20,134 nt of DNA from Fidelibacterota bacterium (GCA_043822705.1 JBDRBK010000046.1:1-20134); one strand, 5' to 3'; positions 397 to 20,047 are shown, counted from the stretch's first letter. Notes: generated from the sequence alone by a model not told the origin. A program made the numbers and translations.

Positions 397-418
397 TGTA
401 AGTCCTTATAAAAAGATT

Positions 419-499: not shown

Positions 500-505
500 T
501 AATAA

Positions 506-1948: not shown

Positions 1949-1955
1949 CGTTTTA

Positions 1956-2088: not shown

Positions 2089-2096
2089 GAAATGGA

Positions 2097-2495: not shown

Positions 2496-2517
2496 ATACG
2501 ACTTCTTTAGTCGCATT
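2494..2517. promoter_or_regulatory. IscR-type operator box, proximal
   Basis: Minus strand AATGCGACTAAAGAAGTCGTATAT, an imperfect palindrome with a CGACT-N5-AGTCG core. It overlaps the predicted transcription start and the start codon. Confidence 0.7.
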
Positions 2518-2518
2518 A

Positions 2519-2548
2519 AACTTAAAAAGGCTGAATAATCGGGTGCAA
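2519..2548 (-). promoter_or_regulatory. Putative sigma70-type promoter of rrf2-sufBC
   Basis: TTGCAC (2548-2543), 18-nt spacer, TAAGTT (2524-2519). It lies between the two operator boxes. Confidence 0.5.
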
Positions 2549-2554
2549 GAACTA

Positions 2555-2578
2555 ATTACGACTTAATTGGTCGGGTAT
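2555..2578. promoter_or_regulatory. IscR-type operator box, distal
   Basis: Minus strand ATACCCGACCAATTAAGTCGTAAT, which resembles the type-1 IscR site pattern ATAxxxGACt-N5-AGTC. Confidence 0.72.
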
Positions 2579-2595
2579 AAAGGAATGTACTAGTA

Positions 2596-2658
2596 TGTCA
2601 TGCTGAGCGTGTCGAAGCATGATTTTAATAATCACCCTTCGACGGGATCAGGGTGACA
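2596..2658. repeat. REP-like double-hairpin element (TGTCA...TCGAAG type), copy 1
   Basis: TGTCATGCTGAGCGTGTCGAAGCATGA, spacer, TCACCCTTCGACGGGATCAGGGTGACA. Each arm is self-complementary and the two arms are inverted homologues. Confidence 0.85.
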
Positions 2659-2726
2659 TACTGGAAAAAATGGTAAATGCTGAAAATATTTTAAATCAAT
2701 TTCAGTGTATTCAGTGTCTTTCGTGG

Positions 2727-3965
2727 TCACCCGTATTTCTTCACCAGCAAACTCACATTCCCGCCGCCGAAGCCGAAGGAATTGCTCAGTGCCGCGCCGA
2801 TCTTGATTTCCTGCGCCGTGTTAGGCACATAATCGAAGGGGCAGTCCGGGTCGGGGGTCCGGTAATTGATGGTGGGGTGGGCGGTCTGGAGTTGCAGGCA
2901 CAGGCAGAGCGCCACGAATTCCACCGAGCCGGACCCGGCCATCAGGTGGCCGATCATCGATTTGGTGGAACTGATTTTCAGTTTCCTGGCGTGGTCGCCG
3001 AAAACCCTGGCAACCGCCGCCGATTCGCGCTGATCATTCAATACCGTTGACGTGCCATGGGCGTTGATATAATCGATATCCTCTGGTTGCAGCCCGGCGT
3101 CTTTGATGGCGTTCTGCATTACCCGGATCATGCCGTCGCTTTCGGGATGGGGGGCGGTGAAATGGTAGGCGTCGGCGGTGTTGCCGTAACCGGCCAGCTC
3201 GCCGTAAATCTTGGCGCCCCGCTTCCGGGCGTGATCCAGTGTTTCCAGCACCACCAGTCCGCTGCCCTCGCCCATGACGAAACCGTCACGGTCCTTGTCG
3301 AAGGGTCGGCTGGCGCAGGCGGGGTCGGTACTGGCGGACATGGAACGGGTGGCGCAGAAACCGCCGTAGGCCAGTTTGTCGATGCAGGCTTCGGCGCTGC
3401 CGGCCAACATGATATCGGCATCGCCGTGCTGCAGGACCCGCAGAGCGTCGCCGATGGCATTGCCACCGGTGGAACAGGCTACCGAGGGAGCGGAGATCGG
3501 ACCCTTCAGGCCATAGCGGATCGATATCATGGCGGCGGCCATGTTAATCAATAATTTGGAAACGAAAAACGGATTCAGCCCTTTGGGACCTTTGGTGCCC
3601 AGGATATCGTAGCCTTCCTCAATCGTTTTCGAACCACCGATCCCGGAGCCGACATGGATGCCGAAGCGGTTGCCGTCGTAATCATAATCGATCAACCCGG
3701 CGTCTTCCAGGGCCATGGCGGCGGCGGAGACGGCGAACTGGGTGAACCGGTCCATACGGGCGGCGGTCTTGGGCTCGATCCATTTTTCCGGATTAAAATC
3801 GTGGATTTCCGCAGCCAGTTGCGAGCGGAAATCGCCGGCATCAAAAGTGGTGACAAACCCGATGCCGTTGCGGCCGGATTTCAGCCCCTGCCAGAATTCA
3901 GTAGTGCCGATGCCGATTGGCGAAACGACCCCCAGGCCGGTGATAACAACGCGATTCTGCTGCAT
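2727..3965 (-). CDS. fabF: Beta-ketoacyl-ACP synthase II (KAS II)
   Basis: 412 aa. RVVITGLGVVSPIG N-terminus, catalytic Cys in ACSTG, His in NAHGTST and KSMIGHL, SRPFDKDRDGFVMGEG, and C-terminal SNSFGFGG. Confidence 0.95.
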   Translation of the reverse strand: MQQNRVVITGLGVVSPIGIGTTEFWQGLKSGRNGIGFVTTFDAGDFRSQLAAEIHDFNPEKWIEPKTAARMDRFTQFAVSAAAMALEDAGLIDYDYDGNRFGIHVGSGIGGSKTIEEGYDILGTKGPKGLNPFFVSKLLINMAAAMISIRYGLKGPISAPSVACSTGGNAIGDALRVLQHGDADIMLAGSAEACIDKLAYGGFCATRSMSASTDPACASRPFDKDRDGFVMGEGSGLVVLETLDHARKRGAKIYGELAGYGNTADAYHFTAPHPESDGMIRVMQNAIKDAGLQPEDIDYINAHGTSTVLNDQRESAAVARVFGDHARKLKISSTKSMIGHLMAGSGSVEFVALCLCLQLQTAHPTINYRTPDPDCPFDYVPNTAQEIKIGAALSNSFGFGGGNVSLLVKKYG

Positions 3966-4031: not shown

Positions 4032-4616
4032 CTAATATCCCGATTTATCGGAAAAATCGCTGAACCAGTTCCATAGGTCATCCATTTCCCGCTTGTGGTC
4101 TTTTTTAAGTTGCTGCATCACCCGGGCATTCTGGATCGCCACGCCACCCTGTTCGGCGATCGCTGTCATGAACTCGATTTCGTGGCTCGAAAAATCCCGC
4201 ACCTTGGAATCGTAGAACCGCAAAACGCCGATGATCTCATCTTTGAAGATGATCGGGATCGACAGCAGGGCGGCAATCCCTTCCTTTTTACAGGCGTCGG
4301 GGTACTGGAGTTGATCATCCTTGGAAATGTCAGGGACGATCACCGGCTGGCCGGTTTTCAGCGCCCGAGGCAAGGATTTATCAGCCGATACGGGACCCTT
4401 ATTCAGAAATTCTGCACTCAGATTTAAATGAGCGATCATCTCCAGCCGGTTGGCGCCTTTATTCCAGAGACTGATGGCGCCGGCTTTCAGGTCTAACGTT
4501 TCGATCGTGTTGAACAGAATCCGGTCCAGAACCTTGTGCAACTTGAGGGTCGAGCTGATGGCCTTGCTGATATCGGCAAAAGCCCGGAAATAATTCAAAC
4601 TGATGTTAGCGGTCAT
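4032..4616 (-). CDS. Stand-alone GAF-domain protein with a C-terminal coiled-coil tail
   Basis: 194 aa: ISKAISSTLKLHKVLDRI...LSAEFLNKGPV...LQYPDACKKEGIAALLSIPIIFKDEIIGVLRFYD...EIEFMTAIAEQGGVAIQNAR. GGAGG SD upstream. No output domain. Confidence 0.9.
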   Translation of the reverse strand: MTANISLNYFRAFADISKAISSTLKLHKVLDRILFNTIETLDLKAGAISLWNKGANRLEMIAHLNLSAEFLNKGPVSADKSLPRALKTGQPVIVPDISKDDQLQYPDACKKEGIAALLSIPIIFKDEIIGVLRFYDSKVRDFSSHEIEFMTAIAEQGGVAIQNARVMQQLKKDHKREMDDLWNWFSDFSDKSGY

Positions 4617-4640: not shown

Positions 4641-4669
4641 ATTATAACCCCCGAGAGTTGAATTGTCAA
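4641..4669 (-). promoter_or_regulatory. Perfect-consensus sigma70 promoter upstream of the GAF gene
   Basis: Minus strand TTGACA (4669-4664), 17-nt spacer, TATAAT (4646-4641), followed by the GGAGG SD and ATG 4616. Confidence 0.85.
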
Positions 4670-4763: not shown

Positions 4764-4904
4764 CTATTTCGCCGGTTTCTGCTTGATCCGGCGGACGCTG
4801 TTGCTGCTGCATTTGGGGCAGGTTCGTTCCACCAGGACGTTTTTATCGTAGGGCAGGGTGAATTCATGGCCACAATGCAGGCATTTGAATGGTGCTTGTT
4901 CCAT
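4764..4904 (-). CDS. 46-aa zinc-ribbon/rubredoxin-like microprotein (CxxC-x17-CxxC)
   Basis: Manual translation, below the ORF-track size cutoff: MEQAPFKCLHCGHEFTLPYDKNVLVERTCPKCSSNSVRRIKQKPAK* (ATG 4904, TAG 4766-4764). The CxxCGHEF...CPKCxSxxV pattern is typical of FmdB/HypA-like zinc ribbons. Confidence 0.8.
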   Translation of the reverse strand: MEQAPFKCLHCGHEFTLPYDKNVLVERTCPKCSSNSVRRIKQKPAK

Positions 4905-5061: not shown

Positions 5062-7548
5062 TTAGGCTTCCGCCGTGACCGCTATCGTTTTCGGCTTGAG
5101 TTTTTCCTCTTCCTTTTTAGCTGCCTTGGCCTCGGCTTTTTCGCGCTCCCCCTTCAGGACCTGCATTGTATGTTCGACCTCTTCAGCCGTTACCTGTTTA
5201 CGCATTTCTTCCAGGTCGCGCATGGTGCGGGCCCATTTCTGGCCCTCGGCGGCGGAGATCCATTCCAGTTGCAGGCGCTCGGGGCGGATGCCCAGTTTCT
5301 CCAGCTTATCCCACAGTTTCTCGATCCGTTTCACCGTCCAGCGATTGGCGTCGATGTAGTGGCAGTCGGCGAAATGGCAGCCGGAAACCAGCACGATCGG
5401 AGCGCCATTCTCGAAGGCGTGCAGGATGAATTCCGAATCCACCCGGCCGCTGCACATGGTGCGCATGATCCGCTGGGTGGCGGGATACTGGAGCCGCGAC
5501 AATCCCGCCAGGTCGGCGCCGGCATAGGAGCACCAGTTGCAGGCAAAAACCACGACGTTGGCCTGGGGATCTTCTTCCAGCATGGCGTCGATCTGGGCCC
5601 GATACTGGATATTTTCGTAATGCTTCATTATCAGGGCGTCGAAATTGCATTCGGCGGCGCAGGTACCGCAGCCTTTGCACATGGCTTCGATCACCTCGGC
5701 GGGAGTCCCGGCCTTGGCTTCGCCGCCACGGATGGCGTTGAAGGGACAGACCTTGATACAGATGCCGCAGGACGTGCAGAGATCGATATTACAGTGGGAG
5801 GTGATTGCCTCGATACTGATATTGCCGGAATTAAGCAGTACCTGGGCGCGGGCGGCGGCGGCGCTAGCCTGGGTGACGCTATCTTTCACATCCTTGGGAT
5901 ACTCGACACAACCGGCGAAAAAGACACCGCCGGTGGGGGCGTCAACCGGTTTGAGCTTGGGATGCGATTCCATGAAAAAGCCGTCTTCGGTGCGCGACAG
6001 GGTGAACAGCTTGCGGATCAAACCGCTGTCGCGCCGGGGGATCACGCCCACTGACAGGACCACCGTGTCGAATTCATAATCGCGAATTTCGCCGGTCATG
6101 GTATCCTCGGCGATCAGGGTCAGGTTACGACTTTGGGGATCTTCGAAAATTTCACCTGGCAGGCCCCGGATGTACTGCACCCCGGCCTGTTTGCTGCGCA
6201 TAAACAGATCCTCGAAGCCCTTGCCGAAGGCCCGGATATCCATGTAGAATACGGTAATCTCGGTGTCAGGATAGTGATCCTTCAATAACAGGCTGTCCTT
6301 GACCGTATTCATACAGCAGATATTGCTGCAGTAGGGATTGCCCACGGCGCTGTTGGATCGGGAGCCGACACACTGGATGAAGGCGATCCGCTTAGGTGTC
6401 TGGCGGTCGCTGGGCCGGACAAAATGACCTTCGGTGGGGCCGCCGGCGGAGATCAGCCGTTCGAATTCCATACTGGTGATGACATTTTCGAAGCGCGTGT
6501 AGCCGTACTCGTCCATCTCGGTGGGATCGTAGACATCCATGCCGGTGGCGACGATCACCGCCCCGACATTCAGCTTTATGATTTTTTCCTCTTCGTCGAA
6601 ATCGATGCACTGTTTTTCGCAGACATCGGCGCATTTGCCGCAGGCAATCGGGTTGTGTCCCAGGCAGAGCTGGTCATCCAGGATATACACCGATGGCACG
6701 GCCTGGGGGAAGGGCATGTAAATCGCTTTGTGCGAGGAAAAACCCTGCTGGAAGGTATCGGGTCCCACTACCGGGCAGACTTTTTCACATTCGCCGCAGG
6801 CATTGCATTCAGCGACATTGACATAGCGGCGCTTCCGGCGCACGGTCACCTGAAAATTACCGATGTAGCCGGTGACGTCCTGGATTTCGCTATAAGTCAG
6901 GAGATTTATTCGGGGATGTCGACCGACATCCATCATTTTTGGTCCGAGTATTCATATGGAACAATCCATGGTTGGATAGGTCTTGTCCAGCATGGCCATG
7001 ATCCCGCCAATGGATGCCTCCTTTTCGACCAAATGGACCTGATAGCCGGTATCGGCCAGATCCAGGGCTGATTGAATACCGGCCACGCCGCCACCGACCA
7101 CCAGCACTTCGCGCAGGACCGGTATCCGTGCTTCCTGCTGCGGCCGCATGTAGCGGGCGCGGGCCACGGCGATCCGGACCGCATCCCGGGCTTTGCGGGT
7201 GGCGCCGTCCCAGTCATTGAGATGCGCCCAACTGACATGCTCGCGGATGTTGGCCATTTCCATCAAATAGGGATTAAGCCCGGCCTCGGCGACACAGGCC
7301 CGGAAAGTGGTTTCGTGCATCCGCGGCGTGCAGGAGGCCACCACGACCCGGTTCAGGCGCTGTTCCCGGATGTGGCGCTTGATCTCCACCTGTCCCGGTT
7401 CGGCGCAGGTGTATTTATTGACCACGGAACAGACCACATCGGGCAGCGTGGCGGCGTAGTCGCTGACCTGCCGGCAATCCAGCGACCCGGCGATGTTTTT
7501 GCCGCATTCGCAGACAAAAACACCGATTCTCAGACCGTCATCGTTCAT
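5062..7548 (-). CDS. hdrA: Selenocysteine-containing HdrA (heterodisulfide reductase A-like flavoprotein) fused to a C-terminal MvhD domain; 828 aa with Sec199
   Basis: ORFs 6952-7548 and 5062-6936 are in one frame, joined by TGA (6954-6952) in LDKTYPTMDCSI-U-ILGPKMMDVGRHP, the conserved HdrA DCSxCIL motif. Other motifs: RIGVFVCECG, VVVASCTPRMHE, FAD motif GGGVAG, ferredoxin motifs, EFERL, FIQCVGSR...YCSNICCMNTVK, and the MvhD domain FACNWCSYAGAD...MCSGRV...GCHFADCHY...LEWISAAEG. Confidence 0.95.
6914..6931 (-). promoter_or_regulatory. Putative bacterial SECIS hairpin of hdrA
   Basis: mRNA GGAUGUC-GGUC-GACAUCC, a perfect 7-bp stem with a G-initiated loop starting 20 nt after the UGA. A possible lower stem is UACUCGG/CCGAAUA. 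Confidence 0.8.
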
Positions 7549-7579
7549 TCAACGCTCCTTTTTATTGGTTGACTCCTTG

Positions 7580-7652
7580 GACACGGAGGATACTATGGTC
7601 ACAAGTTCCGTTATCTGGTTTATTTTATGCTCCCGTGTAATCCTGGTGTCTG
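7580..7652. repeat. Degenerate intergenic inverted repeat between the hdrD-like gene and hdrA
   Basis: GGACACGGAGGATAC near 7580 versus GTAATCCTGGTGTCTG near 7637-7652 (reverse complement CAGACACCAGGATTAC). Confidence 0.45.
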
Positions 7653-7657
7653 GGCGT

Positions 7658-8806
7658 TTAACTATTAATTCTTCTTAATATTATTGTTGAAATATCCTGT
7701 ATGCTAAGCGAACAGTCAGGATCATCCTGATGCTGCCGGGTACACTGCAGGTGAATATGACACTTGGGACAGGCCACCGCCAGCGTTCTCGCACCGGTTT
7801 CGCGTGCCTGACGCAGGCGCTCATTCTGGATTTTGCGGGTGGTGCCGTCGCAGTTCATCCAGGCCGATACTCCGCAGCACAACGCACCTTTGCCGTGTTG
7901 GGCCATTTCCACCAGATTGTCACTGCCATTGGATTGCAGCACTGTCCGGGGCGCGACGTACTCGTCCAGGTGACGCCCCAGGCGACAGGGGTCCTGGAAG
8001 GTCACCGGCTCGTAGCTGGGCTGCAGTTCCAGCGCGCCGGCTGCGATCTTTTCGGCAATGAACTGGCTCATATGCTGGAGTTTCCAGGGCACTTTGAAGC
8101 CGTTATCGCGGTACAGGTTTTGAAAAGCGCTCTGGCATTCGGCACAGGAAAAAAGGATTGTCTTACAGCCGGATGCGGCCACCATCTCCAGGTTGCGCTC
8201 AGCCAGCATTTTGAAATTGTCCGTGTCGCCGTTCCAGTACAGGTCGTGACCGCAGCAGCGTTCCTGAGGCAGCAGGACGGGCTTGATCCCCAGGTGATTT
8301 AATATTTTTATACTGCTGATCGCAGCATCCAATGTTGATAATTCCAGACTGGTGAAAAAGGAATCGAAATAAGGAGCACAGCCGACGAAATACAGGATTT
8401 CGCCCTGATCAGTGGTGATGTCCAGATCGGCGCTCAGCCAGTCCAGCCGGTTTTGTTTCAGGTCGGTGGCGGTCATCATTTTCTGCAATGTCTCGAGTAC
8501 GCCGGAATGGGAGCACTGGCCGCGGAACTGGTGCGATTCGTTGCGACTGCGCAGGATCTGGGTCAGCTCGATATAACTGATGGCGCTGGGGCAGACCTGG
8601 TCGCAGCGTTTACAGGTCAGACAGCTCCAGAGGTCGTAATCGCGGAACAGGTTTTCGAAATCCTGTTTCACGGACTTGTTCAGCATCAACCGTGGTGAAT
8701 ACTCCTGGCTGAAGCGCGAAACAGGACAGACCGAGGTGCATTTTCCGCATTCCAGGCAGGCCAGGGCGTTGGTTTTCCGGACGGCGGCGTATAAGTTTTC
8801 GTACAC
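7658..8806 (-). CDS. HdrD/GlpC-like Fe-S oxidoreductase (HdrC-like 2x[4Fe-4S] domain plus two CCG domains)
   Basis: 382 aa, GTG start. Ferredoxin motifs CLECGKCTSVCP and CLTCKRCDQVCP. CCG domains YFVGC...ERCCG...SCAEC and FQDPCRLGR...LCCG...ACPKC. Confidence 0.9.
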   Translation of the reverse strand: MYENLYAAVRKTNALACLECGKCTSVCPVSRFSQEYSPRLMLNKSVKQDFENLFRDYDLWSCLTCKRCDQVCPSAISYIELTQILRSRNESHQFRGQCSHSGVLETLQKMMTATDLKQNRLDWLSADLDITTDQGEILYFVGCAPYFDSFFTSLELSTLDAAISSIKILNHLGIKPVLLPQERCCGHDLYWNGDTDNFKMLAERNLEMVAASGCKTILFSCAECQSAFQNLYRDNGFKVPWKLQHMSQFIAEKIAAGALELQPSYEPVTFQDPCRLGRHLDEYVAPRTVLQSNGSDNLVEMAQHGKGALCCGVSAWMNCDGTTRKIQNERLRQARETGARTLAVACPKCHIHLQCTRQHQDDPDCSLSIQDISTIILRRINS

Positions 8807-8808
8807 GA

Positions 8809-11139
8809 TTAATTCCTCATCTGATTGCTGATTGATCGGGCAAACTCACTGACGGCCTGGATGAAACGGACACTGTCTCCGTCGGTGATAGCGGCAAAGC
8901 CGATCCGGCTGGGCGCGGTCCCCAGAATGTGAACCAGATTCCTGATTTCATCGAAGGCTGACCGAATCCGCCGGGCGCCGTCGCCATAATGACAGCTTTC
9001 ATCGCTGCAGGCCGTCAGCAGGACGCCGCTGGCACCGGCCGCCAGGGCTTTCAAAACGAAACCCGGCTCGATCCGGCCGCCACAGATGGTCTGAATCAGA
9101 TGCAGGTTAACACCGTCCGTATGCAATTGCGCCAGTTCATCGCCATGCAGGCTGGAACCATTCCAGCGGCAGGAAAACACCACCAGATTGGTTTGGCCGG
9201 TTTTCATTTGGGCCAGTTTGGAATCCAGCCAGGCCTCGTCGATGAAGGCCGGCAGCATGGCGCCGTTGGGGCAGGCCGCCACGCAGATGCCGCAGGCCCG
9301 GCAGAGATCGGGATTGAGCTGTGATATTTTCAATTCACCTGAGGTCGGTAGCAGTTCCAATGCGCCATACCCGCAGACTGAGACGCATTCGCCACAGCCG
9401 CGGCAGATATTAGCTGCGGTCCGTGGTTGCAGCGATCGCAGGTTGATGGCGGTCTTGCCAGTCTTCCCGAACCGCAGGGTCGCCGGCAGGGTGGATTGAT
9501 CATTCAAAATGGTACGCAGATTGTTCGGTACGCGGCACAGGATTTCGATCGACTGATCCGGAATGGTTAACAGGGCCGGTTGTTTGTCACACAGCGAAAC
9601 GCATTCCGCACATTCGCCGCAGGGACCGCAGCGCAGGCAGCGCCGGGCCTCGGCGATGGCGGTGGCCTCATCGAAACCGAATTCCACTTCTTCGAAATTG
9701 TCCAGCCGTTGCTGCACATTCAGGGCCGGCATTTCCGCCCGGGTTTTTTGCGGGCGTTGATTCGGATCGATTTTTATCTCCGCTTCAACCATCAGCTGGG
9801 GGAGTTTAGGGGGTACCAGCGATTCGCCGGTCAGATAATGCGCGATGGCGTCGGCGGCGCGGTGACCGTGGGCGATGGCGTCGATCACAGTGCCGGGACC
9901 AGTCACGGCATCGCCGCCGGCAAATACACCGGGGCGGTCGGTGACCATGGTGATCTCATCCGCAACCAGGGTGTTCCAGCGTGAAAGCCGGACGGCACTG
10001 AGCCCAAAACCAATCTCCGGCTCCTGGCTGATGGCGGGAATAATGCAATCGGCGGCAATGAAAAATTCGGATTCGGCAACTGGCACCGGTCGCCGCCGTC
10101 CGCTTTCATCCGGCTCGCCCAGTGTCATTTTCTGACACTTCATTCCATTAACTCTGCCGTCTATGCCAACAATCTCCAGCGGAGCCGCCAGATAGTGAAT
10201 CTGCACGCCTTCGTGCTCGGCCTCGTTAATTTCCTCCTCATCGGCGGGCATTTCATTCCGGGTGCGGCGATAAACGATATGCACTTCACGGCTGCCGAGG
10301 CGCCGGGCGGTCCGGGCCGAATCGATGGCGGAATTGCCGCCGCCGATTACGATAACCTGGTCCCCCGGTTTCTTTGCTGCCGTAAAATTGACCTGATTCA
10401 AAAAGGCCACGGCATCCAACACTCCCCGGTAATTTTCTTCCCCGGCAATATTTAATTTTTTGCCCCGGTGGGCCCCGATCGCCAGGTAGATGGCGGAATA
10501 ACCCACGGAGAATAAATCATCGATGGCAGTCTCACCTTCAATCGGGTGACCGGTTTTAATTTTAATTCCCAGATTGATAAGATAATCGATCTCGGCTGCC
10601 AAAATATTACGCGGCAGACGGTAGGCCGGGATGCCGGCGATCAGCATGCCGCCCGGTTCGGGCAGGGTCTCGAAAACGGTTACGTCAAATCCCTGACGCA
10701 CCAGATCGTTGGCAGCGGTCAGCCCGGAGGGACCGGAACCGACTACGGCCACTTTCTCGGGGCGGGTGGTTTCAATTTTCACCGGTGGTGTTCCGGGATG
10801 GGCCAGCTCATAATCGGCAGCGAAACGTTTCAGCCAGCGGACGGCCACCGGCTGATCGACAGCATTGCGGTTGCAGGCCGCCTCGCAGGGATGAGTACAG
10901 ACCCGGCCGCAGATCCCCGGCAGCGGGTTGCGCTGCCGGATCACATCCAGGGCAGCGACGAATTTGCCGGCGGCGATCAGCGAAACATAGGCTTTCACAT
11001 TAACGCCGGCGGGACAGGCGGTCGCACAGGGCGATTGTTCCACCGGACCGAAACGGTATTTATGCCGATCGCCGGAGAAGCTGATATAGCCATCCTCCCG
11101 GAGAAAATAATCAGGCCTTCGCGTAGCGGATTCAGGCAT
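8809..11139 (-). CDS. GltD/NfnB(SudA)-like FAD/NAD(P)H oxidoreductase fused to 4Fe-4S ferredoxin and MvhD-like domains
   Basis: 776 aa. PCATACPAGVNV...NPLPGICGRVCTHPCEAAC; FAD motif GSGPSG; GGGNSAIDSARTARRLG...VYRRTR (NADPH-type); GVFAGGDAVTGP; EARRCLRCGPCGECAECVSLC; CRGCGECVSVC and CRACGICVAACP; MvhD-like FSCRWN...ICGGRIEP...ACSDESCHY. Confidence 0.9.
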   Translation of the reverse strand: MPESATRRPDYFLREDGYISFSGDRHKYRFGPVEQSPCATACPAGVNVKAYVSLIAAGKFVAALDVIRQRNPLPGICGRVCTHPCEAACNRNAVDQPVAVRWLKRFAADYELAHPGTPPVKIETTRPEKVAVVGSGPSGLTAANDLVRQGFDVTVFETLPEPGGMLIAGIPAYRLPRNILAAEIDYLINLGIKIKTGHPIEGETAIDDLFSVGYSAIYLAIGAHRGKKLNIAGEENYRGVLDAVAFLNQVNFTAAKKPGDQVIVIGGGNSAIDSARTARRLGSREVHIVYRRTRNEMPADEEEINEAEHEGVQIHYLAAPLEIVGIDGRVNGMKCQKMTLGEPDESGRRRPVPVAESEFFIAADCIIPAISQEPEIGFGLSAVRLSRWNTLVADEITMVTDRPGVFAGGDAVTGPGTVIDAIAHGHRAADAIAHYLTGESLVPPKLPQLMVEAEIKIDPNQRPQKTRAEMPALNVQQRLDNFEEVEFGFDEATAIAEARRCLRCGPCGECAECVSLCDKQPALLTIPDQSIEILCRVPNNLRTILNDQSTLPATLRFGKTGKTAINLRSLQPRTAANICRGCGECVSVCGYGALELLPTSGELKISQLNPDLCRACGICVAACPNGAMLPAFIDEAWLDSKLAQMKTGQTNLVVFSCRWNGSSLHGDELAQLHTDGVNLHLIQTICGGRIEPGFVLKALAAGASGVLLTACSDESCHYGDGARRIRSAFDEIRNLVHILGTAPSRIGFAAITDGDSVRFIQAVSEFARSISNQMRN

Positions 11140-11142
11140 GGA

Positions 11143-11709
11143 TCAGGCTTCCACTTGGGCAGTTTGTTTTTCTTGCTCCAGCAATTCGACAGCGTAGTCA
11201 TAACCCTGTTGGAAGGCTTTGATGTTGACAGCGATGAAGCGTTCCGGTACCGACTCCGGCAGGGCCGCCTTGACCGCTTCGGCACTGATCACACCGGTAA
11301 TTCCCGTGAAGAAACCAACCATCACCACATTGGCAAAAATTCGATTGCCCATTTCCTCGGCGATACGGGTGGAGGGAATCGAATACATCCTGACATCGTC
11401 GCGCAACCGTTCCGGTTTGACCAGATCGTTATCGGTTAGCAGGATGCCGCCGGTGACCAGGTCGTCCAGGAATTTTTCGTAGGCTTCCTGAGACATCGTA
11501 ACCAGGATTTCCGGTGCCACGATATAGGGGTACAGAATCGGCTTGTCGTCCACCACCACCTGGGCCGAGCAGGCGCCGCCGCGGGCTTCCGGTCCGAAGC
11601 TTTGGGTCATGGTGCCGTATTTGTTGTCGTACAGGGAGGCGGCCATCCCGATTAAGATACCGGATTTGATGATTCCCTGTCCGCCGAAGCCGGAAAATCG
11701 AATATCCAT
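11143..11709 (-). CDS. 2-oxoacid:ferredoxin oxidoreductase gamma subunit (KorC-like)
   Basis: 188 aa: IRFSGFGGQGII, TQSFGPEARGGAC, ANVVMVG, VNIKAFQQGY. Confidence 0.93.
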   Translation of the reverse strand: MDIRFSGFGGQGIIKSGILIGMAASLYDNKYGTMTQSFGPEARGGACSAQVVVDDKPILYPYIVAPEILVTMSQEAYEKFLDDLVTGGILLTDNDLVKPERLRDDVRMYSIPSTRIAEEMGNRIFANVVMVGFFTGITGVISAEAVKAALPESVPERFIAVNIKAFQQGYDYAVELLEQEKQTAQVEA

Positions 11710-11738
11710 TGGTTACCCTGAAAGTATGTGGTTTGGGA

Positions 11739-11945
11739 AGGGCATGAATGCCCTCCACGGTAATTGGTGATATAGCTTAACCCAGCCCTGAAGGGCCGGG
11801 TCACTGAATGAAATAGTACGAGTACTGCCATGATCGAGTTGGTTCGTGTATGAATGAACCTGACTGACTGTTTTTTGGGCTGTAATCCAGCCATTTATGG
11901 CTGGGATAAAACGAAGCAAGTGAAGTAAGACGCCGTTCACGGCGT
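11739..11945. repeat. Four-hairpin REP/MITE-like insertion between the OFOR beta and gamma genes
   Basis: AGGGCA-TGAA-TGCCCT (11739-11754), ACCCAGCCC-TGAA-GGGCCGGGT (11780-11801), CCAGCCA-TTTA-TGGCTGG (11887-11904), ACGCCG-TTCA-CGGCGT (11930-11945). Confidence 0.75.
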
Positions 11946-12856
11946 TATTTCCCGTTGGGGCCGGTGTAAGGCACAAATTTATCGCCCAGTTTTTCGCGGA
12001 GGAATTGATCGCGTTTTTCCAGAAAATGGGATTTGTTCTTGTCAACAAATTCACCCACGGTGATGCGCTGCTGAAAATCGATATCCACGGTACGAGTGTC
12101 GATACCATGTTTGATGATGGCGTTGTCATGATAAAAACGCATCAAGTCCAGGCCCGAGCCGAGACGGTTGCGCCGGGCGTAGAGTGTCGAGCAGGGGGCG
12201 ATTACTTCGATGAAGGAAAAGCCCGGCTTTAGTAGCGCCTTAGTCATCGACTTGGCCATGCGCCGGATATGCAGGGCGGTCCAGCGAGCCACGAAAACAG
12301 CGCCGGATGATTCCGCCAGGAAGGGCAGATTGAAGGGATATTCATAGCAGCCGTAAGGGGCGGTAGAGGCGTTGGCGGTCAGGGGCGTGGTCGGTCCGGC
12401 CTGCCCGCCGGTCATGGCGTAATTGAAATTATTGATGCAGATGATGGTCAGGTTGATGTTGCGCCGGGCGGCGTGAATCAGATGGTTGCCGCCGATGGCA
12501 ATCAGATCACCGTCGCCGCTGATTACCGTAACCTTCAGTTCCGGGTTGCCCAGGGCCAGACCGGTGGCGAAGGGAATCGCCCGGCCGTGGGTGGAGTGAA
12601 ACGAGTCCAGCCGCAGGTAGCCGGCGGCCCGGCCGGAGCAGCCGATCCCGGAAACGACGGCCACTTTTTTCTGGTCCAGTCCCGATTTTTGCAGGGCTGT
12701 GATATAGGCGGTCAGCACGGTACCGATCCCACAGGAGGCACACCAGATGTGGGGCAGGCGTTCGGTCCGCAGAAAGTGCTCCATGGGATGGTGCAACGGT
12801 TCCTGAGGTTCGGGAATATGGAGTGTACTGGTCATTTCGGATGTCATTTCGCTCAT
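11945..12856 (-). CDS. 2-oxoacid:ferredoxin oxidoreductase beta (TPP-binding) subunit (KorB-like)
   Basis: 303 aa: PHIWCASCGIG, VSGIGCSGR, HSTHGRAIPFATG, TPP motif GDGD...NNFNYAMTGGQ. Start overlaps the alpha stop (ATGA). Confidence 0.94.
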   Translation of the reverse strand: MSEMTSEMTSTLHIPEPQEPLHHPMEHFLRTERLPHIWCASCGIGTVLTAYITALQKSGLDQKKVAVVSGIGCSGRAAGYLRLDSFHSTHGRAIPFATGLALGNPELKVTVISGDGDLIAIGGNHLIHAARRNINLTIICINNFNYAMTGGQAGPTTPLTANASTAPYGCYEYPFNLPFLAESSGAVFVARWTALHIRRMAKSMTKALLKPGFSFIEVIAPCSTLYARRNRLGSGLDLMRFYHDNAIIKHGIDTRTVDIDFQQRITVGEFVDKNKSHFLEKRDQFLREKLGDKFVPYTGPNGK

Positions 12857-14010
12857 GCCGCACCTTCCTCGATTGCTTTAAGAATATCCAGCGGATCATG
12901 TACCCAGCCGCCGGCGTGAGGTACCAGAATCGATTTGCAGGCGCCGCCGGCGCAGCGCTCCACTTCCAGCACCACCTGACCCAGATTGATTTCCGGAACT
13001 ACGAACGCTTTCACCTTGCGGGCCAGTTCCCGAATCCGCCGTTCCGGGAACGGCCAGACCGTTACCAACCGCAGCGTGCCGACTTTGAGACCTTTGGCAC
13101 GCGCCAAATCGACCGCCTTCAGGGCCACCCGCGAAGAAATACCGTAAGATACGACCACCACGTCGGCGCCTGCGATCTGGTCTTCTTCGATAATCTGGAT
13201 TTTTTTGACATTATTACGAATTTTATTCACCAGGTGGGTGACATTCTTTTGCTGGGCTTCGGCGTTGATTACGGGGTAGCCCCGTTCGTCGTGGGTCAGT
13301 CCGGTAATATGAATATTGTACCCATCACCGGCCTTGATCATCGGCGCCAGTTCATTTTCGTTAAACCGATACGGCCGATAGGCGTCGTGGTCACCCTGAT
13401 AAAAATTGCGGGGCACGATTTCAATTTCATCCGCGGCGGGAATAACGACTTTTTCAGTCATGTGGCCGACGCACTCGTCCATCATGAACAATACCGGCAC
13501 CCGCCATTTTTCCGCCAGATTGAAGGCCGTGATCGACAGATCGAAACATTCCTGGGGCGAGTTGGGCGAAAGGGCGATGATTTCGTAATCGCCGTGGGAG
13601 CCCCAGCGAGCCTGCATCATATCGGCCTGTCCGGTGAGGGTCGGCAGGCCGGTGGACGGTCCGCCGCGCTGCACGTTGACCACTACGCAGGGTGTTTCCA
13701 GCATTACGGCCAGTCCCAGGTTCTCCATCATCAGTGAGAAGCCGGGCCCGGAGGTGACGGTCATGGCCTTGACCCCGGACCAGGTCGCCCCGATGACGGC
13801 CGCCATGGAGGCCAGTTCATCTTCCATCTGGATAAACATACCGCCGATTTTTGGAAAGCGGACCGCGATCCGTTCCGCCACTTCGGTGGAAGGAGTGATC
13901 GGGTACCCCGCCAGGAAGCGGCAACCGGCGGCAATCGAACCTTCGGAGCAGGCGTGGTCGCCGTCCAGGTAATGGGCGCCGGTGGCGACGCCGATTGGAT
14001 CGGCCTTCAC
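12853..14010 (-). CDS. 2-oxoacid:ferredoxin oxidoreductase alpha subunit (KorA-like, four-subunit type)
   Basis: 385 aa, GTG start overlapping the delta stop. Motifs GYPITPSTE, QMEDELAS, TSGPGFSLMMEN, QRGGPSTGLPT, RWGSHGD, PEINLGQ. Confidence 0.95.
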   Translation of the reverse strand: MKADPIGVATGAHYLDGDHACSEGSIAAGCRFLAGYPITPSTEVAERIAVRFPKIGGMFIQMEDELASMAAVIGATWSGVKAMTVTSGPGFSLMMENLGLAVMLETPCVVVNVQRGGPSTGLPTLTGQADMMQARWGSHGDYEIIALSPNSPQECFDLSITAFNLAEKWRVPVLFMMDECVGHMTEKVVIPAADEIEIVPRNFYQGDHDAYRPYRFNENELAPMIKAGDGYNIHITGLTHDERGYPVINAEAQQKNVTHLVNKIRNNVKKIQIIEEDQIAGADVVVVSYGISSRVALKAVDLARAKGLKVGTLRLVTVWPFPERRIRELARKVKAFVVPEINLGQVVLEVERCAGGACKSILVPHAGGWVHDPLDILKAIEEGAA

Positions 14011-14312
14011 GAGTCACCACCTTTCTGCAGCAGTTCCCCGGCTCCGGGGTGGTGGGCGTCCGTCTCCCGGACGAATATGGCGAATTCCGGACAGATGGTC
14101 TCACAGAGATTACAGTTGACACAAACGCCCTCTTTGACCACAACCGGGTAATGATAACCCTTGCGGTTGAAATCGGCGGACATCTCGAGGACTTTTTTTG
14201 GACAATATTCGACGCAGAATCCGCAGCCCTTACAGCGCTCGACCAGCAAGTGGGTCGTACCGTGCGGAATCTCAATTGTGTCGATATCAAAAGGAACACG
14301 CCAGTTGTTCAT
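14007..14312 (-). CDS. 2-oxoacid:ferredoxin oxidoreductase delta subunit (2x[4Fe-4S] ferredoxin, KorD-like)
   Basis: 101 aa: CKGCGFCVEYCP...FNRKGYHYP...CVNCNLCETICPEFAI. Confidence 0.92.
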   Translation of the reverse strand: MNNWRVPFDIDTIEIPHGTTHLLVERCKGCGFCVEYCPKKVLEMSADFNRKGYHYPVVVKEGVCVNCNLCETICPEFAIFVRETDAHHPGAGELLQKGGDS

Positions 14313-14419
14313 GCTGCACCCTTATCGATAATTCTGATAATGATTATTGATTTTGATTTTAATCCGTAATTCCGGAAGTACTTGATAGTCGTGATTCGCA
14401 GTTTTCGTATGACGGAGTA

Positions 14420-14689
14420 TCAGTCGATGAAATTGCTGCCTTCCTCCCGTTGCACCGTTTGAAAAAATTGACAATTATCGCAGTTGTCGTTCGGTGGCTG
14501 GTGGGCACAGGTTTTTGGCGTCGCTTTCTTGGTCCCGGCGATGCTCCAACAGTATCTGCCCCCGTTAAAACCGTTGTTGGTGCCGTTGAAAGCGGTATAA
14601 GTCACTGATTGACAGACGCCCAGCAGACCGGCTTTGTCACCTCCCAGTTCACGACCGCAGTGGTTGAACTCCCAGCAGTTTGTTTTCAT
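14420..14689 (-). CDS. Two-CW-domain Cys-rich small protein
   Basis: 89 aa with seven Cys: NCWEFNHCGRE...GVC...NGTNNGFNGGRYCWSIAGT...C...CDNCQFFQTVQREEG. AAGGGG SD upstream. Confidence 0.85.
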   Translation of the reverse strand: MKTNCWEFNHCGRELGGDKAGLLGVCQSVTYTAFNGTNNGFNGGRYCWSIAGTKKATPKTCAHQPPNDNCDNCQFFQTVQREEGSNFID

Positions 14690-15003: not shown

Positions 15004-16056
15004 TTAAGGATCAACGATGATCCGCCGGGATTGCGGTATTAGTACTTCACCGATCTTGATGGCAGGGAATGGATTGGCCTGGTTGAACTGCGCGAGCAGC
15101 AACGACGCCTGCTCCGCGGGCAGGGCGATGATCAGGCCGCCCGAAGTCTGGGCGTCGGCGATCATGATTCTATCAACGGCGGTCAAGTCGGGACTGAAGC
15201 CGGTGAATTTTTCGGCATAGGCCAGATTGCGGCGGCTGCCGCCGGGAATTACATTTTGTTCGGCCAGAGCCCGTACCTCCGGCAGGAAGGGCAGGACGGT
15301 ATAGTCGATCCGGGCGCTGACGCCGCTGGCGGCGCACATTTCACCGAGATGACCGAGCAGTCCGAAACCGCTGACGTCCGTGACCGCGTGGGCGCCGAAT
15401 TGCCGGGCCGCTGTCGCGGCCAGATTATTTAATGTGCTCATCGACCGGGTCGCAATTTCGATTATTTCCTTCCCGGCCAGGCCTCTTTTGATGGCGGTGG
15501 CAATGATTCCGGTGCCCAGTGGCTTGGTCAGGATCAGGGCATCGCCGGGTCGGGCTTTGGCGTTGGTCAAAAGGTCCGCTTCCCGGACCTCGCCGGTGAC
15601 GACCAGTCCGTATTTCGGTTCCCGGTCGTCGATACTGTGTCCGCCGACGATGGCGATCCCGGCTTCCGCGGCTTTGTCAATCCCGCCCTGAAGAATCGCG
15701 GTCAGCATTTCATGCGGTAATTCGTCGATTGGAAAACCGACGATATTAAGCGCGAACAGCGGTGTGCCACCCATGGCGTAAATATCGGAAAGGGAATTGG
15801 CGGCGGCGATTTGCCCGAACCGATAGGGATCGTCCACCACCGGCGTGAAAAAATCAACGGTCTGCAACAACAGTTTACCATCATCCAGTCTGAACACGGC
15901 GGCATCGTCGGCGCCCTCGAATCCGACCACCGTCCGCCGATCCGGTTTGATGACCAGCCCGCCGAGAATTTGTCTTAGGTCCTCCGGACCGATCTTGCAG
16001 GCTCAGCCGGAGCCGTGACTCAAGGTCGTCAGGCGTTTTTGTTCTTTTATCGACAT
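15004..16056 (-). CDS. selD: Selenophosphate synthetase (selenide, water dikinase), Sec-containing; 350 aa with Sec18
   Basis: ORF 15004-15930 extends in frame through TGA (16005-16003) to ATG 16056: MSIKEQKRLTTLSHGSG-U-ACKIGPEDL, the SelD U/C-x-C-K active site. Downstream motifs are DDAAV, QTVDFFTPVVDDP, AANSLSDIYAMGG, GGHS, LTKPLGTG, TDVSGFGLLGH and DAQTSGGL. Confidence 0.97.
15978..15990 (-). promoter_or_regulatory. Putative bacterial SECIS hairpin of selD
   Basis: mRNA GGUCC-GGA-GGACC, a 5-bp stem with a G-initiated loop starting 12 nt after the UGA. Confidence 0.65.
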
Positions 16057-17169: not shown

Positions 17170-19008
17170 ATGCCAAAAACCTTGAAACGAATTGATGATG
17201 TTACCATCCGTTTTGCCGGCGATTCCGGCGACGGTATGCAACTTACCGGTGATCGTTTCACAAGTGCTACCGCCATTATCGGCAATGATTTGAGTACCCT
17301 GCCGGATTATCCGGCGGAAATTCGCGCTCCCGCCGGTTCCCTGGCGGGCGTGAGTGCATTCCAACTGCACTTCAGTTCCCATGAAATATTCAGCCCCGGC
17401 GATGACCCGGATGTGCTGGTGGCGATGAACCCGGCCGCGTTGAAAGTGCATCTGCCCGAACTGGTACGGGGTGGAACGGTAATCCTCAACACCGCCAGTT
17501 TTACCCCGAAAAATATAAAACTGGCCCAGTACAATGTCAGTCCGCTGGACGACAACACATTGAAAGATTTTGTGGTTTATCCGGTCGATATGAGCCTGCT
17601 GGTGACCAACGCCTGCGCCGACATGGGCCTATCGCCCAAGATTGTTGAGCGGACCAAAAACATGTTCGCCCTGGGTATACTTTATTGGATGTACAACCGC
17701 CCGGTGGATACGACGATCCAGTGGCTGAAGGATAAATTCGCCCACAAACCGGATATCATCGAAGCTAATACCCGCGCCCTCAACGCCGGGTACAATTACG
17801 GCTCCACCAACCGGATTTTCACTACCAATTACAAAGTCGATGCGGCCCGCCTGAAACCGGGTGTATACCGCAACATCAGTGGCAATTTTGCCACGGCCCT
17901 GGGGTTGGTGGCGGCCGCGAAAAAGGCTGGATTAAATCTGTTCTACGGCAGTTATCCGATCACGCCGGCCAGCGATATTCTGCATCACCTGGCCGATATG
18001 CGCAATTACGGCGTGCGGACGTTTCAGGCGGAGGATGAGATCGCCGGAATTACTTCGGCGATCGGTGCGGCCTTCGCCGGTTCGCTGGCGGCCAGCGGCA
18101 CTTCCGGGCCCGGCCTGGCCCTGAAATCGGAAGCCCTGGGGCTGGCGGTCATGACCGAGTTGCCGTTAGTGATTATCAATGTCCAGCGCGGCGGACCGGC
18201 CACCGGTTTGCCGACCAAGACCGAACAGGCCGATCTGTTCCAGGCCATTTACGGCCGGAACGGCGAGGCGCCGATCCCGGTCATCTCGGCCCGCTCCCCA
18301 GGCGATTGTTTCACCGCCACCTACGAGGCTGCCCGGGTTGCCCTGAAGTACATGACCCCGGTGATCGTATTGACCGACGGTTATGTGGGCAACGGTTCGG
18401 AGCCCTGGAGCATCCCCAGCGTCGACGAACTGCCGGAAATAAAGGCTAATTTCTTCACTAAAGACAGCGGCCAGACCTACCAGCCTTACGGCCGTGACGA
18501 GACCACTTTGGCCCGTAAGTGGGTCGTACCCGGTACGCCGGGATTGGAGCATCGCATCGGTGGCCTGGAAAAGGAAAATGGCAGCGGCGATGTAAATTAC
18601 AGTCCCGAGAATCACCATCTGATGGTCACTCTGCGGGCCCGCAAAGTGGCGCAGGTCGCAGATGATATTTCACCCTGTAAGATCATCGGCGATGAGAGCG
18701 GCGATATCCTGATCGTTAGTTGGGGCAGTACCCGCGGTGCCTGCCGCGCCGCTCTGCAGAAGCTGCGGGCCGCGGGCAAATCGGTCAGCCACATGCATCT
18801 GCGCTGGCTCAATCCCTTGCCGCGGGAGCTGGGCGACATCCTGAAACGGTTCAAGAAAATATTTGTACCGGAGATCAACCTGGGGCAACTGGCCACAGTG
18901 CTCAGGTCACGGTATCTGATCGAACCGCACCAGCTCAACCTGGTGCGCGGGCGACCGTTCCTGACCCGTGAAATAATTGATGCTGTCAACGAATTGATAG
19001 ATGGATAA
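17170..19008 (+). CDS. korA: 2-oxoacid:ferredoxin oxidoreductase alpha subunit, two-subunit type (fused gamma+alpha domains)
   Basis: 612 aa: IRFAGDSGDGMQLTG, PDYPAEIRAPAG, YGSYPITPAS, QAEDEIAG, TSGPGLALKSE, QRGGPATGLPTKTEQADL, EHRIGGLEK. GAGGA SD upstream. Confidence 0.95.
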   Translation: MPKTLKRIDDVTIRFAGDSGDGMQLTGDRFTSATAIIGNDLSTLPDYPAEIRAPAGSLAGVSAFQLHFSSHEIFSPGDDPDVLVAMNPAALKVHLPELVRGGTVILNTASFTPKNIKLAQYNVSPLDDNTLKDFVVYPVDMSLLVTNACADMGLSPKIVERTKNMFALGILYWMYNRPVDTTIQWLKDKFAHKPDIIEANTRALNAGYNYGSTNRIFTTNYKVDAARLKPGVYRNISGNFATALGLVAAAKKAGLNLFYGSYPITPASDILHHLADMRNYGVRTFQAEDEIAGITSAIGAAFAGSLAASGTSGPGLALKSEALGLAVMTELPLVIINVQRGGPATGLPTKTEQADLFQAIYGRNGEAPIPVISARSPGDCFTATYEAARVALKYMTPVIVLTDGYVGNGSEPWSIPSVDELPEIKANFFTKDSGQTYQPYGRDETTLARKWVVPGTPGLEHRIGGLEKENGSGDVNYSPENHHLMVTLRARKVAQVADDISPCKIIGDESGDILIVSWGSTRGACRAALQKLRAAGKSVSHMHLRWLNPLPRELGDILKRFKKIFVPEINLGQLATVLRSRYLIEPHQLNLVRGRPFLTREIIDAVNELIDG

Positions 19009-20047
19009 GCCGATCATGGAAAAAAACGGAACAATTACAGTACAAGAACTGACCCGCATGGATTTCGCTTCCGACCAGGTGGTGAAATGGTGCCCGGGTT
19101 GCGGCGATTATTCGGTCCTGGCCCAGGTGCAGAAGGTATTCCCGACGCTGGGCGTACCCAAGGAGAATTTTGTAATCGTGTCCGGTATCGGCTGTTCCAG
19201 CCGGTTCCCGTATTACATGAATACTTACGGATTTCACGGTATCCACGGCCGGGCCGCCGCTATTGCCACCGGGGTCAAGCTGGCCAATCCCGACCTGTCG
19301 GTGTGGATCGTCACTGGTGACGGCGACAGTATGTCGATCGGCGGGAATCATTTCATCCACCTGCTGCGGCGCAATATCGATGTGAACATCCTGCTGTTCA
19401 ACAACCGCATTTACGGCCTGACCAAAGGTCAGTATTCACCGACTTCACCGCTGGGGAAGGTGACCAAATCGACACCCATGGGTTCATTGGACCATCCTTT
19501 CAATCCACCGGCCCTGGCCCTGGGTGCCGGTGCTTCATTCGTGGCGCGGACGATCGATAAGGAACCGAAGCATATGCAGGAAATGATCCAGCGCGCCCAT
19601 GCCCATCACGGTACCTCGTTCCTGGAAATTTATCAGAACTGCCTGATTTTCAACGACGGTGAATTTGCCAAGTACACCGACAAGGAAACCAAGGAAGACA
19701 ATGTGCTGGTGCTGGAACACGGGAAACCGATGATTTTCGGTAAAAACCGGGATAAGGGTATCCACTTGGCCGGGAATAGTCCACGGGTCGTGAATATCGG
19801 TCCCGAGGGGCAGTGGTCGGTCAACGATCTGTTGGTCCATGACGAAACCGATTGGATCATTGCCTCGATCCTGAGCCATTTCACTTACCGCGATGACCTG
19901 CCGACGCCGGTCGGCGTTCTCTATGCCGTGCAGCAATCGGTCTATGAGGACCTGCTGGTAGAGCAGTGCCGGCGGGCCGTCGAATTGAAAGGCGTAGGCG
20001 ATTTGCACGATTTGTTAAATTCCGGTGACACTTGGACCGTTAAATAA
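19001..20047 (+). CDS. korB: 2-oxoacid:ferredoxin oxidoreductase beta subunit
   Basis: 348 aa: WCPGCGDY, VSGIGCSSRFPYY, HGIHGRA, GDGDSMSIGGNH, NNRIYGLTKGQYSPT. Overlaps the korA stop. Confidence 0.95.
   Translation: MDKPIMEKNGTITVQELTRMDFASDQVVKWCPGCGDYSVLAQVQKVFPTLGVPKENFVIVSGIGCSSRFPYYMNTYGFHGIHGRAAAIATGVKLANPDLSVWIVTGDGDSMSIGGNHFIHLLRRNIDVNILLFNNRIYGLTKGQYSPTSPLGKVTKSTPMGSLDHPFNPPALALGAGASFVARTIDKEPKHMQEMIQRAHAHHGTSFLEIYQNCLIFNDGEFAKYTDKETKEDNVLVLEHGKPMIFGKNRDKGIHLAGNSPRVVNIGPEGQWSVNDLLVHDETDWIIASILSHFTYRDDLPTPVGVLYAVQQSVYEDLLVEQCRRAVELKGVGDLHDLLNSGDTWTVK

Follow-up and report, generated by a model that had tools for sequence, protein, structure and literature searches.

Results

The locus

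We analysed a stretch of 20,134 nucleotides (nt) of DNA from a Fidelibacterota bacterium (GCA_043822705.1 JBDRBK010000046.1:1-20134, hereafter the window), which carries a gene set that joins a four-subunit 2-oxoacid:ferredoxin oxidoreductase (OFOR) to a flavoprotein with an NADP(H) domain, an HdrD-like protein and an HdrA with an in-frame TGA codon. The genome of the window (G000; completeness 93%, contamination 6%) is placed by its named relatives in Marinisomatota/Fidelibacterota. Eight co-oriented genes occupy positions 5062-14689 of the minus strand in the order two-CW protein, OFOR delta, alpha, beta and gamma, a GltD-ferredoxin-MvhD fusion (GltD-Fd-MvhD), HdrD-like and HdrA-MvhD (Table 1). 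Delta and alpha overlap by 4 nt, as do alpha and beta; gamma and GltD-Fd-MvhD lie 3 nt apart and GltD-Fd-MvhD and HdrD 2 nt, with longer gaps between the CW gene and delta (107 nt), beta and gamma (235 nt) and HdrD and HdrA (109 nt). Eight co-oriented genes with four tight junctions had been recorded in the initial annotation, and the coordinates and gaps agree with it. Its statement that hdrB, hdrC, mvhAG, fdh and flx are missing from the window is likewise borne out by gene calls and Pfam and NCBIfam profiles.

The two-CW gene is peripheral, being present in 15 of the 39 loci of the short type described below and leading the operon in some relatives; the conserved core therefore consists of seven genes. 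The 235-nt insert between beta and gamma is specific to this genome, where it occurs in a single copy, and the two genes overlap in L021, L022 and L024. Across loci, inserts of hundreds of bases between operon genes are tolerated. A terminator scan inside the operon gave candidates at chance level only and is uninformative on internal promoters or terminators. One RNA run, covering 5% of words, gave contigs of 151-246 nt at a depth of 2-6, possibly with DNA carry-over, and none of the eight listed pieces spans two genes.

Table 1. Features of the window, with positions counted from its first nucleotide
Feature	Position	Strand	Basis or remark
Two-CW domain protein, 89 aa	14420..14689	-	NF045718 above cut-off
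OFOR delta, 2x[4Fe-4S] motifs, KorD-like	14007..14312	-	Fer4 matches; best NF042987 OGOR_delta, under cut-off
OFOR alpha, OGOR-type clade	12853..14010	-	NF006412 566 bits > 411; top PDB matches 1yd7, 8ys5
OFOR beta	11945..12856	-	Alignments to 8ys5_C, 6n2n_B, 5b46/5b48
235-nt insert separating beta from gamma, containing short palindromes	11710..11944	.	Beta/gamma overlap in close relatives
OFOR gamma	11143..11709	-	PF01558; NF006323 202 bits, under cut-off 235
GltD/StnC-type FAD-NADP(H) domain + six-Cys linker + 2x[4Fe-4S] + MvhD-like, 776 aa	8809..11139	-	
HdrD/BamD-like: HdrC-like 2x[4Fe-4S] + two CCG domains, 382 aa	7658..8806	-	
HdrA(Sec199)-MvhD fusion, HdrA2 type, 828 codons	5062..7548	-	NF040770 1158 bits > 1100
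In-frame TGA in hdrA, likely selenocysteine	6952..6954	-	Residue 199
SECIS-like hairpin, 7-bp stem, GGUC loop	6914..6931	-	20 nt past TGA
SelD with own in-frame TGA (Sec18)	15004..16056	-	TIGR00476 above cut-off
Separate two-subunit KorAB-type OFOR, divergent	17170..20047	+	TIGR03710, TIGR02177 above cut-off

Conservation of the gene order and the wider family

Of the forty relatives searched, 16 carry the flavoprotein fusion, either complete or truncated where a contig stops. The seven-gene order is kept in all 11 relatives with full coverage, and the other five, which run off their contigs, agree with it as far as they extend; the arrangement is therefore not a product of chance, and the neighbourhood search upholds the gene order that had been proposed as a module. 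The HdrD-like gene is found in 42 of 301 Marinisomatota genomes, in a small, single-copy locus. Comparison of these 42 carriers with 20 listed non-carriers from Marinisomatota, all of them kin so that counts are descriptive, reveals HdrA matches in 42/42 carriers versus 0/20 non-carriers (the match in G231 is merely 41% identical) and OFOR alpha matches in 40/42 versus 0/20. HdrB was found neither in G000 nor in 38 of the 42 carriers, including the single-contig genome G149; it is present in the remaining four.

Gene maps of the best 80 of 522 relatives of the HdrD-like protein were classified by hand. Thirty-nine are of the short type seen in the window (Marinisomatota and some KSB1; in L116 the MvhD is unfused). 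Three contain NuoF/NuoE/2Fe-2S genes, with a degenerate HdrA-MvhD ahead of HdrD. In 8 there is an HdrL, a tandem HdrA into which GltD is inserted; another 18 contain tandem HdrA but no GltD, and 12 come without upstream DNA. Since NuoF/NuoE/2Fe-2S genes (3/80) or a GltD-containing HdrL (8/80) take the same slot, GltD acts like an interchangeable module for NAD(P)H. The long forms follow the layout BamE (tandem HdrA)-BamF (MvhD)-BamD. HdrB is absent from all 39 short-type loci and present in 14 of 26 long-form loci, where it adjoins HdrD together with HdrC, which speaks against the earlier view that a single HdrD-like chain simply takes the place of HdrBC. Of the 46 HdrD loci whose upstream DNA extends for 8 kb or more, 44 have OFOR genes there, and the linkage persists over at least seven named phyla, with KSB1, Calditrichota, Zixibacteria, WOR-3/Stahlbacteria, TA06, Ignavibacteria and Bacteroidota among the hosts.

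A second scan, of the best 80 of at least 587 metagenome matches (78 with a full HdrD), recovered the same layouts. Taken across both scans, the layouts define a stable core of OFOR, an MvhD-like protein, HdrD and HdrA(Sec)-MvhD, with the NAD(P)H module exchangeable. In the HdrD tree, which like all our trees was computed in quick mode, the short-type loci do not form one clade (5 changes); thus the modules have probably been reshuffled more than once. The locus probably represents a shortened version of a longer cluster consisting of OFOR, tandem HdrA or HdrL, MvhD, HdrD (with or without HdrCB) and HdrA-MvhD.

The OFOR subunits

The alpha, beta, gamma and delta set is complete, with alpha in the clade of 2-oxoglutarate:ferredoxin oxidoreductases (OGOR); beta, gamma and delta score under the specific NCBIfam cut-offs. 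The enzyme is closest to solved 2-oxoglutarate enzymes and shares their beta arginine, at a position where the broad-specificity enzyme has a lysine. This arginine occurs in all 49 beta copies with an intact motif; five second copies are without the motif. We take the residue to bear on substrate specificity, and 2-oxoglutarate would on sequence grounds be the substrate. Delta carries an invariant N-terminal WRxPxD extension, which may be a docking element. Five loci (L094, L107, L112, L113 and L116) contain two alpha-beta pairs upstream of gamma with complementary losses: the first alpha is without YPITP/RGGPS and its beta is intact, and the second alpha is intact with a beta that is without the GIGC and GDGD motifs. 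Such double loci possibly encode an asymmetric OFOR with a single working site.

A probable selenocysteine-containing HdrA

By its sequence the last gene encodes a predicted HdrA-type bifurcating flavoprotein of the HdrA2 subclass, as it tops the cut-off of the HdrA2 model (NF040770). Alignment to 5odc_A places Glu363 and Lys417 on Glu356 and Lys409, so that the bifurcation residues, correctly noted as retained in the initial annotation, are kept. The cluster ligands are kept as well, with TGA at the position of Cys197 of the 5odc HdrA, and the fused MvhD has the full CNWC motif and retains the extra Cys. The protein is strongly conserved (65-88% identity). The TGA is retained in 14/14 relatives that cover the site and in 61/61 copies among the 80 further loci, on which count a frameshift or a two-gene reading of hdrA was rejected. 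It is followed by a hairpin resembling a selenocysteine insertion sequence (SECIS), in which 7/7 pairs form in 60 of 61 copies, with two-sided changes in 9. The hairpin is part of the minimum free energy fold at an unexceptional z of -0.7; it is therefore supported by conservation and not by folding energy, and it overlaps conserved coding sequence. G000 encodes tRNA-Sec, SelD and SelA, and the TGA is likely read as selenocysteine. SelD is the upstream neighbour in close relatives, where its own in-frame TGA is conserved. A second SelD in G000 (C16:4989-7187) has a cysteine-desulfurase-like N-terminus fused to it. Selenocysteine-containing HdrA and HdrL proteins are described in PMC2702500.

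The GltD-ferredoxin-MvhD flavoprotein

Both sequence and predicted fold place the GltD domain nearest to NfnA/StnC, which are described as mid-potential NADPH input modules with a Lys at the cluster beside the non-bifurcating FAD, where the bifurcating NfnL has a Glu (PMC12018979). The corresponding position is Lys104 in the window and Lys in 120/120 homologues; the NfnB of G000 itself has Glu. Given this Lys, shared with NfnA/StnC, we predict the flavoprotein to be a plain NADP(H) port. Accordingly, the earlier assignment as an NAD(P)H module stands, and its description as NfnB-like gives way to NfnA/StnC. No gene for an NfnA/S small subunit was found in the operon. An AlphaFold model of the flavoprotein reached a pLDDT of 79 and a pTM of 0.69.

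The tail of the flavoprotein is an HdrA-type C-terminal ferredoxin followed by MvhD. Its MvhD-like domain has the four Cys ligands and has lost the second Cys of CNWC, as have at least 116 aligned homologues, which suggests a one-electron relay. A six-Cys motif follows the GltD domain in 119/120 homologues. The pattern is the same as at the HdrL junction where GltD re-enters the inserted ferredoxin of HdrA; NuoF-GltD proteins stop after two Cys. The flavoprotein could have arisen from an HdrL-MvhD pair by loss of the two HdrA cores, an origin that the trees allow without proving it. The short type forms one group in the GltD tree (support 89), which is compatible with ancestry from either HdrL or a NuoF-GltD protein, and the MvhD tree has long branches.

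The HdrD-like subunit

Like BamD, the HdrD-like protein is a single chain of about 380 aa that combines HdrC with two CCG domains and is encoded beside MvhD and HdrA. In BamD, as described, the heterodisulfide site is blocked by His230, Trp325 and Tyr356, the distal cluster is often disrupted, and the acceptor is electron-transferring flavoprotein, ETF (bioRxiv 10.64898/2026.04.10.717634). Trp316 of the window protein is invariant (120/120 family members), as is His245; with BamD compared by its published description, their correspondence to the blocking residues is suggestive only. Cys224 is replaced by Gly in 63/120 family members. The distal-cluster ligands are not disrupted in the window.

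G000 encodes one ETF, several acyl-CoA dehydrogenases, Rnf, Frd/Sdh and a Psr-like enzyme. Its membrane CCG protein resembles ETF:quinone oxidoreductase and was detected, using an N-terminally shortened part of the gene as query, in 60 of 62 genomes, so that it does not set carriers apart from non-carriers. Six relatives (G002, G022, G036, G169, G201 and G287; locus L142) have etfBA on the contig of the HdrD-like gene, at a distance of about 17 kb and in G002 past the suf cluster; this is probably general synteny. A hydrogenase or formate dehydrogenase partner of the Mvh/Fdh type in G000 was considered and rejected, as by reading of the open reading frames (ORFs) the NiFe large subunits look Hyb-type and sulfhydrogenase-type and the sole molybdopterin enzyme looks Psr-type.

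Neighbouring genes and related loci

Upstream of selD, a 267-aa protein (16124-16927, minus strand) without Pfam or NCBIfam match lies between korA and selD in relatives as well and is 49-59% conserved. After hdrA come a 46-aa ORF with two CxxC motifs (4764-4904, minus strand) and a perfect TTGACA-17-TATAAT site (4641-4669, minus strand) ahead of a GAF-domain gene (4032-4616); among the 80 loci, 13 have the GAF gene after hdrA. The rest of the window (1-3965, minus strand) holds fabF, an Rrf2-type regulator, sufB and sufC, named from their translations and ordinary.

Elsewhere, hdrA is directly followed by citrate synthase and malate dehydrogenase genes in 13 of the 39 short-type loci (L053, L054, L055, L061, L062, L064, L066 and others). 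Calditrichota-type loci (L091, L093, L095, L096, L100, L104) have no adjoining HdrA-MvhD and run on into thiolase, 3-hydroxyacyl-CoA dehydrogenase-like and HMG-CoA synthase genes. Several Marinisomatota have a second cluster (L129:1495-16666, also L130-L135) of NuoE/NuoF(-GltD), a protein of about 1090 aa in which 2Fe-2S and tandem HdrA are fused, MvhD and a NiFe hydrogenase of MvhGA-like type; the cluster resembles BamGHI-E-F joined to a hydrogenase and was not found in G000. L137 and L138 combine HdrC, HdrB and a short HdrA with DsrE/TusA-like and lipoate-carrier-like genes and Etf, and resemble sulfur-oxidising Hdr systems, the names being given by reading.

Discussion

From the genes, their order and co-occurrence, the motifs and the conserved TGA we infer a complex, its wiring and direction, its substrate and its acceptor. 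Our preferred reading, to which we give a probability of about 0.42, is that the seven genes encode one soluble enzyme that splits the electrons of NADPH at the HdrA flavin, with a low-potential branch to OFOR and a high-potential branch through HdrD to ETF. NADPH would reduce the non-bifurcating FAD of the GltD domain, and the electrons would pass from the GltD clusters through the C-terminal ferredoxin and the [2Fe-2S] relay of the MvhD-like domain to the ferredoxin/MvhD arm of HdrA and on to the bifurcating FAD. On the low branch they would leave by the inserted ferredoxin domain of HdrA towards delta, to carboxylate succinyl-CoA or to charge a ferredoxin pool that feeds Rnf. On the high branch they would run from the selenocysteine-ligated cluster through HdrD to a carrier that is not a thiol, with ETF as the likeliest one, and finally to a membrane ETF:quinone oxidoreductase. 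A stricter version, in which a minimal seven-protein complex lets NADPH drive a ferredoxin-free carboxylation of succinyl-CoA via selenium-HdrA with ETF as the high-potential sink, is tentative and on balance doubtful.

We favour NADPH bifurcation with ETF as the sink because the BamD analogue passes its electrons to ETF and the long relatives share its layout. The computed energetics point the same way: with NADPH at -370 mV and a low branch at -500 mV, the reaction yields -49 kJ with ETF, -19 kJ with CoM-S-S-CoB and +2 kJ with a disulfide of -250 mV. Apart from that of ETF, the potentials are values that we assume. The potential of ETF is given as +16 mV (bioRxiv 10.64898/2026.04.10.717634).

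A number of observations weigh against this reading. ETF is present in 62/62 genomes, carriers or not, and thus does not discriminate between them; it adjoins the HdrD-like gene in only 1 of 78 further loci and is not among the recurring neighbours in the first 80. The match of Trp316 to Trp325 of BamD, and orthology with BamD itself, are conjectural, and the presence of all ten CCG cysteines in the window HdrD is compatible with thiol chemistry. Two loci of the second scan, L159 and L163, combine OFOR, MvhD, HdrD and HdrA without any NAD(P)H module, so the family as such does not depend on NADPH. Among 150 representatives GltD is fused to HdrD itself in 4 and MvhD to HdrD in 23, which would fit other wiring. 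Finally, ATP-citrate lyase (PF16114) was not found in G000, though no control genome matched either, and a CO2-fixing cycle is hence not evident.

A question remains, could the electrons run the other way? In an oxidative wiring OFOR would oxidise 2-oxoglutarate as the donor and GltD-Fd-MvhD would reduce NADP+, taking electrons from delta or from the end of the HdrA-HdrD branch, and HdrA would then yield ferredoxin of extra-low potential. The junctions that flank the flavoprotein gene, gamma/GltD and GltD/HdrD, are the tightest of the operon (3 and 2 nt), single-chain GltD-HdrD and GltD-Fd-MvhD-HdrD fusions exist, and the MvhD of the flavoprotein, fast-evolving and without the extra Cys, may no longer serve a bifurcating flavin; the citrate synthase and malate dehydrogenase genes after hdrA in 13/39 short loci would suit such a direction too. 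Enzymes made of OFOR and a GltD-type NADP+ subunit reportedly occur in Azoarcus, and a full-text search listed no paper on them. Reduced ferredoxin is moreover described as a donor to the core of class II benzoyl-CoA reductase (bioRxiv 10.64898/2026.04.10.717634). However, by arithmetic a bifurcating enzyme of this direction would have to reduce an acceptor at about -630 mV, for which there is no evident candidate; a second OGOR-type enzyme, NfnAB and a membrane transhydrogenase, all encoded by G000, could already supply NADPH; and a plain wire from OFOR to NADP+ leaves the conserved Sec-HdrA and HdrD unexplained. We regard the oxidative direction as unlikely, though it is the main rival.

A further departure concerns only the high-potential end: with the same NADPH input and OFOR branch, HdrD would be a true (hetero)disulfide reductase acting on an unknown thiol pair, in an enzyme that is reversible near equilibrium. 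The range of -19 to +2 kJ agrees with this, both CCG motifs are complete in the clade of the window, and tubeworm symbionts are described as pairing Kor-Hdr with a thiol:fumarate reductase (PMC6315080). On the other side, ComA had no match in G000; genes of the DsrC/TusE family are found in merely 16 of 42 carriers, and the copy in G000 is a TusE-like protein with a single Cys, encoded next to sulfur-relay genes; neither TfrAB nor a thiol protein recurs among the examined loci; about half of the nearest family members are without a cluster Cys (63/120); and HdrBC, where present, comes in addition to HdrD. A disulfide acceptor is therefore doubtful, this alternative is rather unlikely, and the thiol/disulfide named as acceptor in the initial annotation survives as one option only, beside the reduction of ETF by the BamD analogue. 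It is also conceivable that the operon encodes two co-regulated but distinct enzymes, a conventional OGOR and a bifurcating NADPH-HdrA-HdrD enzyme, with electrons passing between them via free ferredoxin. G000 has free ferredoxins, L068 and L117 have GltD-HdrD genes without an adjoining OFOR, and the operon tolerates long inserts between its genes. Yet this type of OFOR alpha is seen only in carriers of the Hdr genes (40/42 vs 0/20), the linkage of OFOR and Hdr persists over at least seven phyla, and the invariant extension of delta may serve docking, which together make separate enzymes quite improbable.

The nearest published design is that of tubeworm symbionts and Thioflavicoccus, where korABCD is interspersed with flxABCD-hdrABC and tfrAB and a complex bifurcating directly to OGOR has been proposed (PMC6315080), with operon-like co-expression of the Kor-Hdr cluster described in PMC11636981; the complex itself is thus a proposal with transcript support. 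In both systems a single operon holds the four OGOR subunits, HdrA, an MvhD-type adaptor and a module for NAD(P)H input, and in both a dimeric KorAB is encoded elsewhere. The published cluster uses FlxABCD and NADH as input and HdrBC with TfrAB as output, in an autotrophic reductive tricarboxylic acid cycle with ATP-citrate lyase, whereas that of the window has the GltD fusion, HdrD and Sec-HdrA-MvhD and contains no Flx, HdrBC or Tfr. The second relative is the core formed by BamDEF and ETF in the class II benzoyl-CoA reductase of Geobacter metallireducens (bioRxiv 10.64898/2026.04.10.717634). Shared features are HdrA-type bifurcation with a Lys at N5, an MvhD adaptor, an output resembling an HdrBC fusion and an exchangeable NAD(P)H input, and the longer relatives of the window share the tandem-HdrA, MvhD and HdrD layout, three of them with NuoEF/2Fe-2S genes. 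The window differs in having no tungsten-containing BamBC (AOR-type), no tandem HdrA and no BamGHI input, in having OFOR as catalytic partner, and in its selenocysteine in HdrA, its two intact CCG motifs and its unlinked ETF.

The combination of HdrA, a GltD-containing HdrL and MvhD with a 2-oxoacid:ferredoxin oxidoreductase recalls the HdrAL/POR locus Sfum_0012-0018 of Syntrophobacter fumaroxidans, likened here by the name of the locus and the identity of Sfum_0013 as MvhD only; the available part of PMC5947623 reports that the complex was not detected and has Sfum_0013 alone in its table, and a second Syntrophobacter proteome paper makes no mention of the locus. HdrL and HdrD types were defined in PMC2702500, which includes the HdrL of Desulfobacterium autotrophicum. 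In HdrL, GltD is fused inside HdrA (the form seen in 8 of the 80 related loci), whereas in the window GltD is separate and has only the ferredoxin-MvhD tail. The HdrA-MvhD fusion is shared with HdrA2B2C2 of Methanosarcina acetivorans, which is described as using F420H2 or ferredoxin, with HdrB2C2 acting on CoM-S-S-CoB and NAD being no substitute (PMC5296606); the window protein scores above the HdrA2 cut-off, and the difference lies in HdrB, which G000 appears not to have. With NfnABC/StnABC (PDB 9bov, 8oh5, 9n5u) the GltD domain shares the Lys, being nearest to their non-bifurcating NADP(H) subunit; their bifurcating core is BfuBC with FMN (PMC12018979), and in the window the partner would be HdrA. 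The available parts of PMC5296606, PMC6085437 and PMC5109826 do not describe this gene set, nor did we find a description of this composition in full-text searches that covered mostly literature outside subscription. The gene composition is thus apparently uncharacterised, as had been supposed when the locus was called undescribed, but the design has a published precedent in the proposed linkage of OFOR and HdrA with NAD(P)H input.

The direct link between HdrA and an OFOR has so far been proposed from genomes and transcripts, and the available parts of PMC5947623, PMC6315080 and PMC11636981 contain no enzymology. If the stricter version of our reading is correct, the locus would encode an uncharacterised HdrA bifurcation reaction that is widespread in uncultured bacteria of sediment and groundwater, and no simpler system would be at hand for probing both the Kor-Hdr complex that has been proposed and the output from BamD to ETF. 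Because each module is gained, exchanged or lost in naturally occurring variants, the wiring and the acceptor are testable, and the answer would bear on the balance of NADPH and ferredoxin in abundant uncultured anaerobes.

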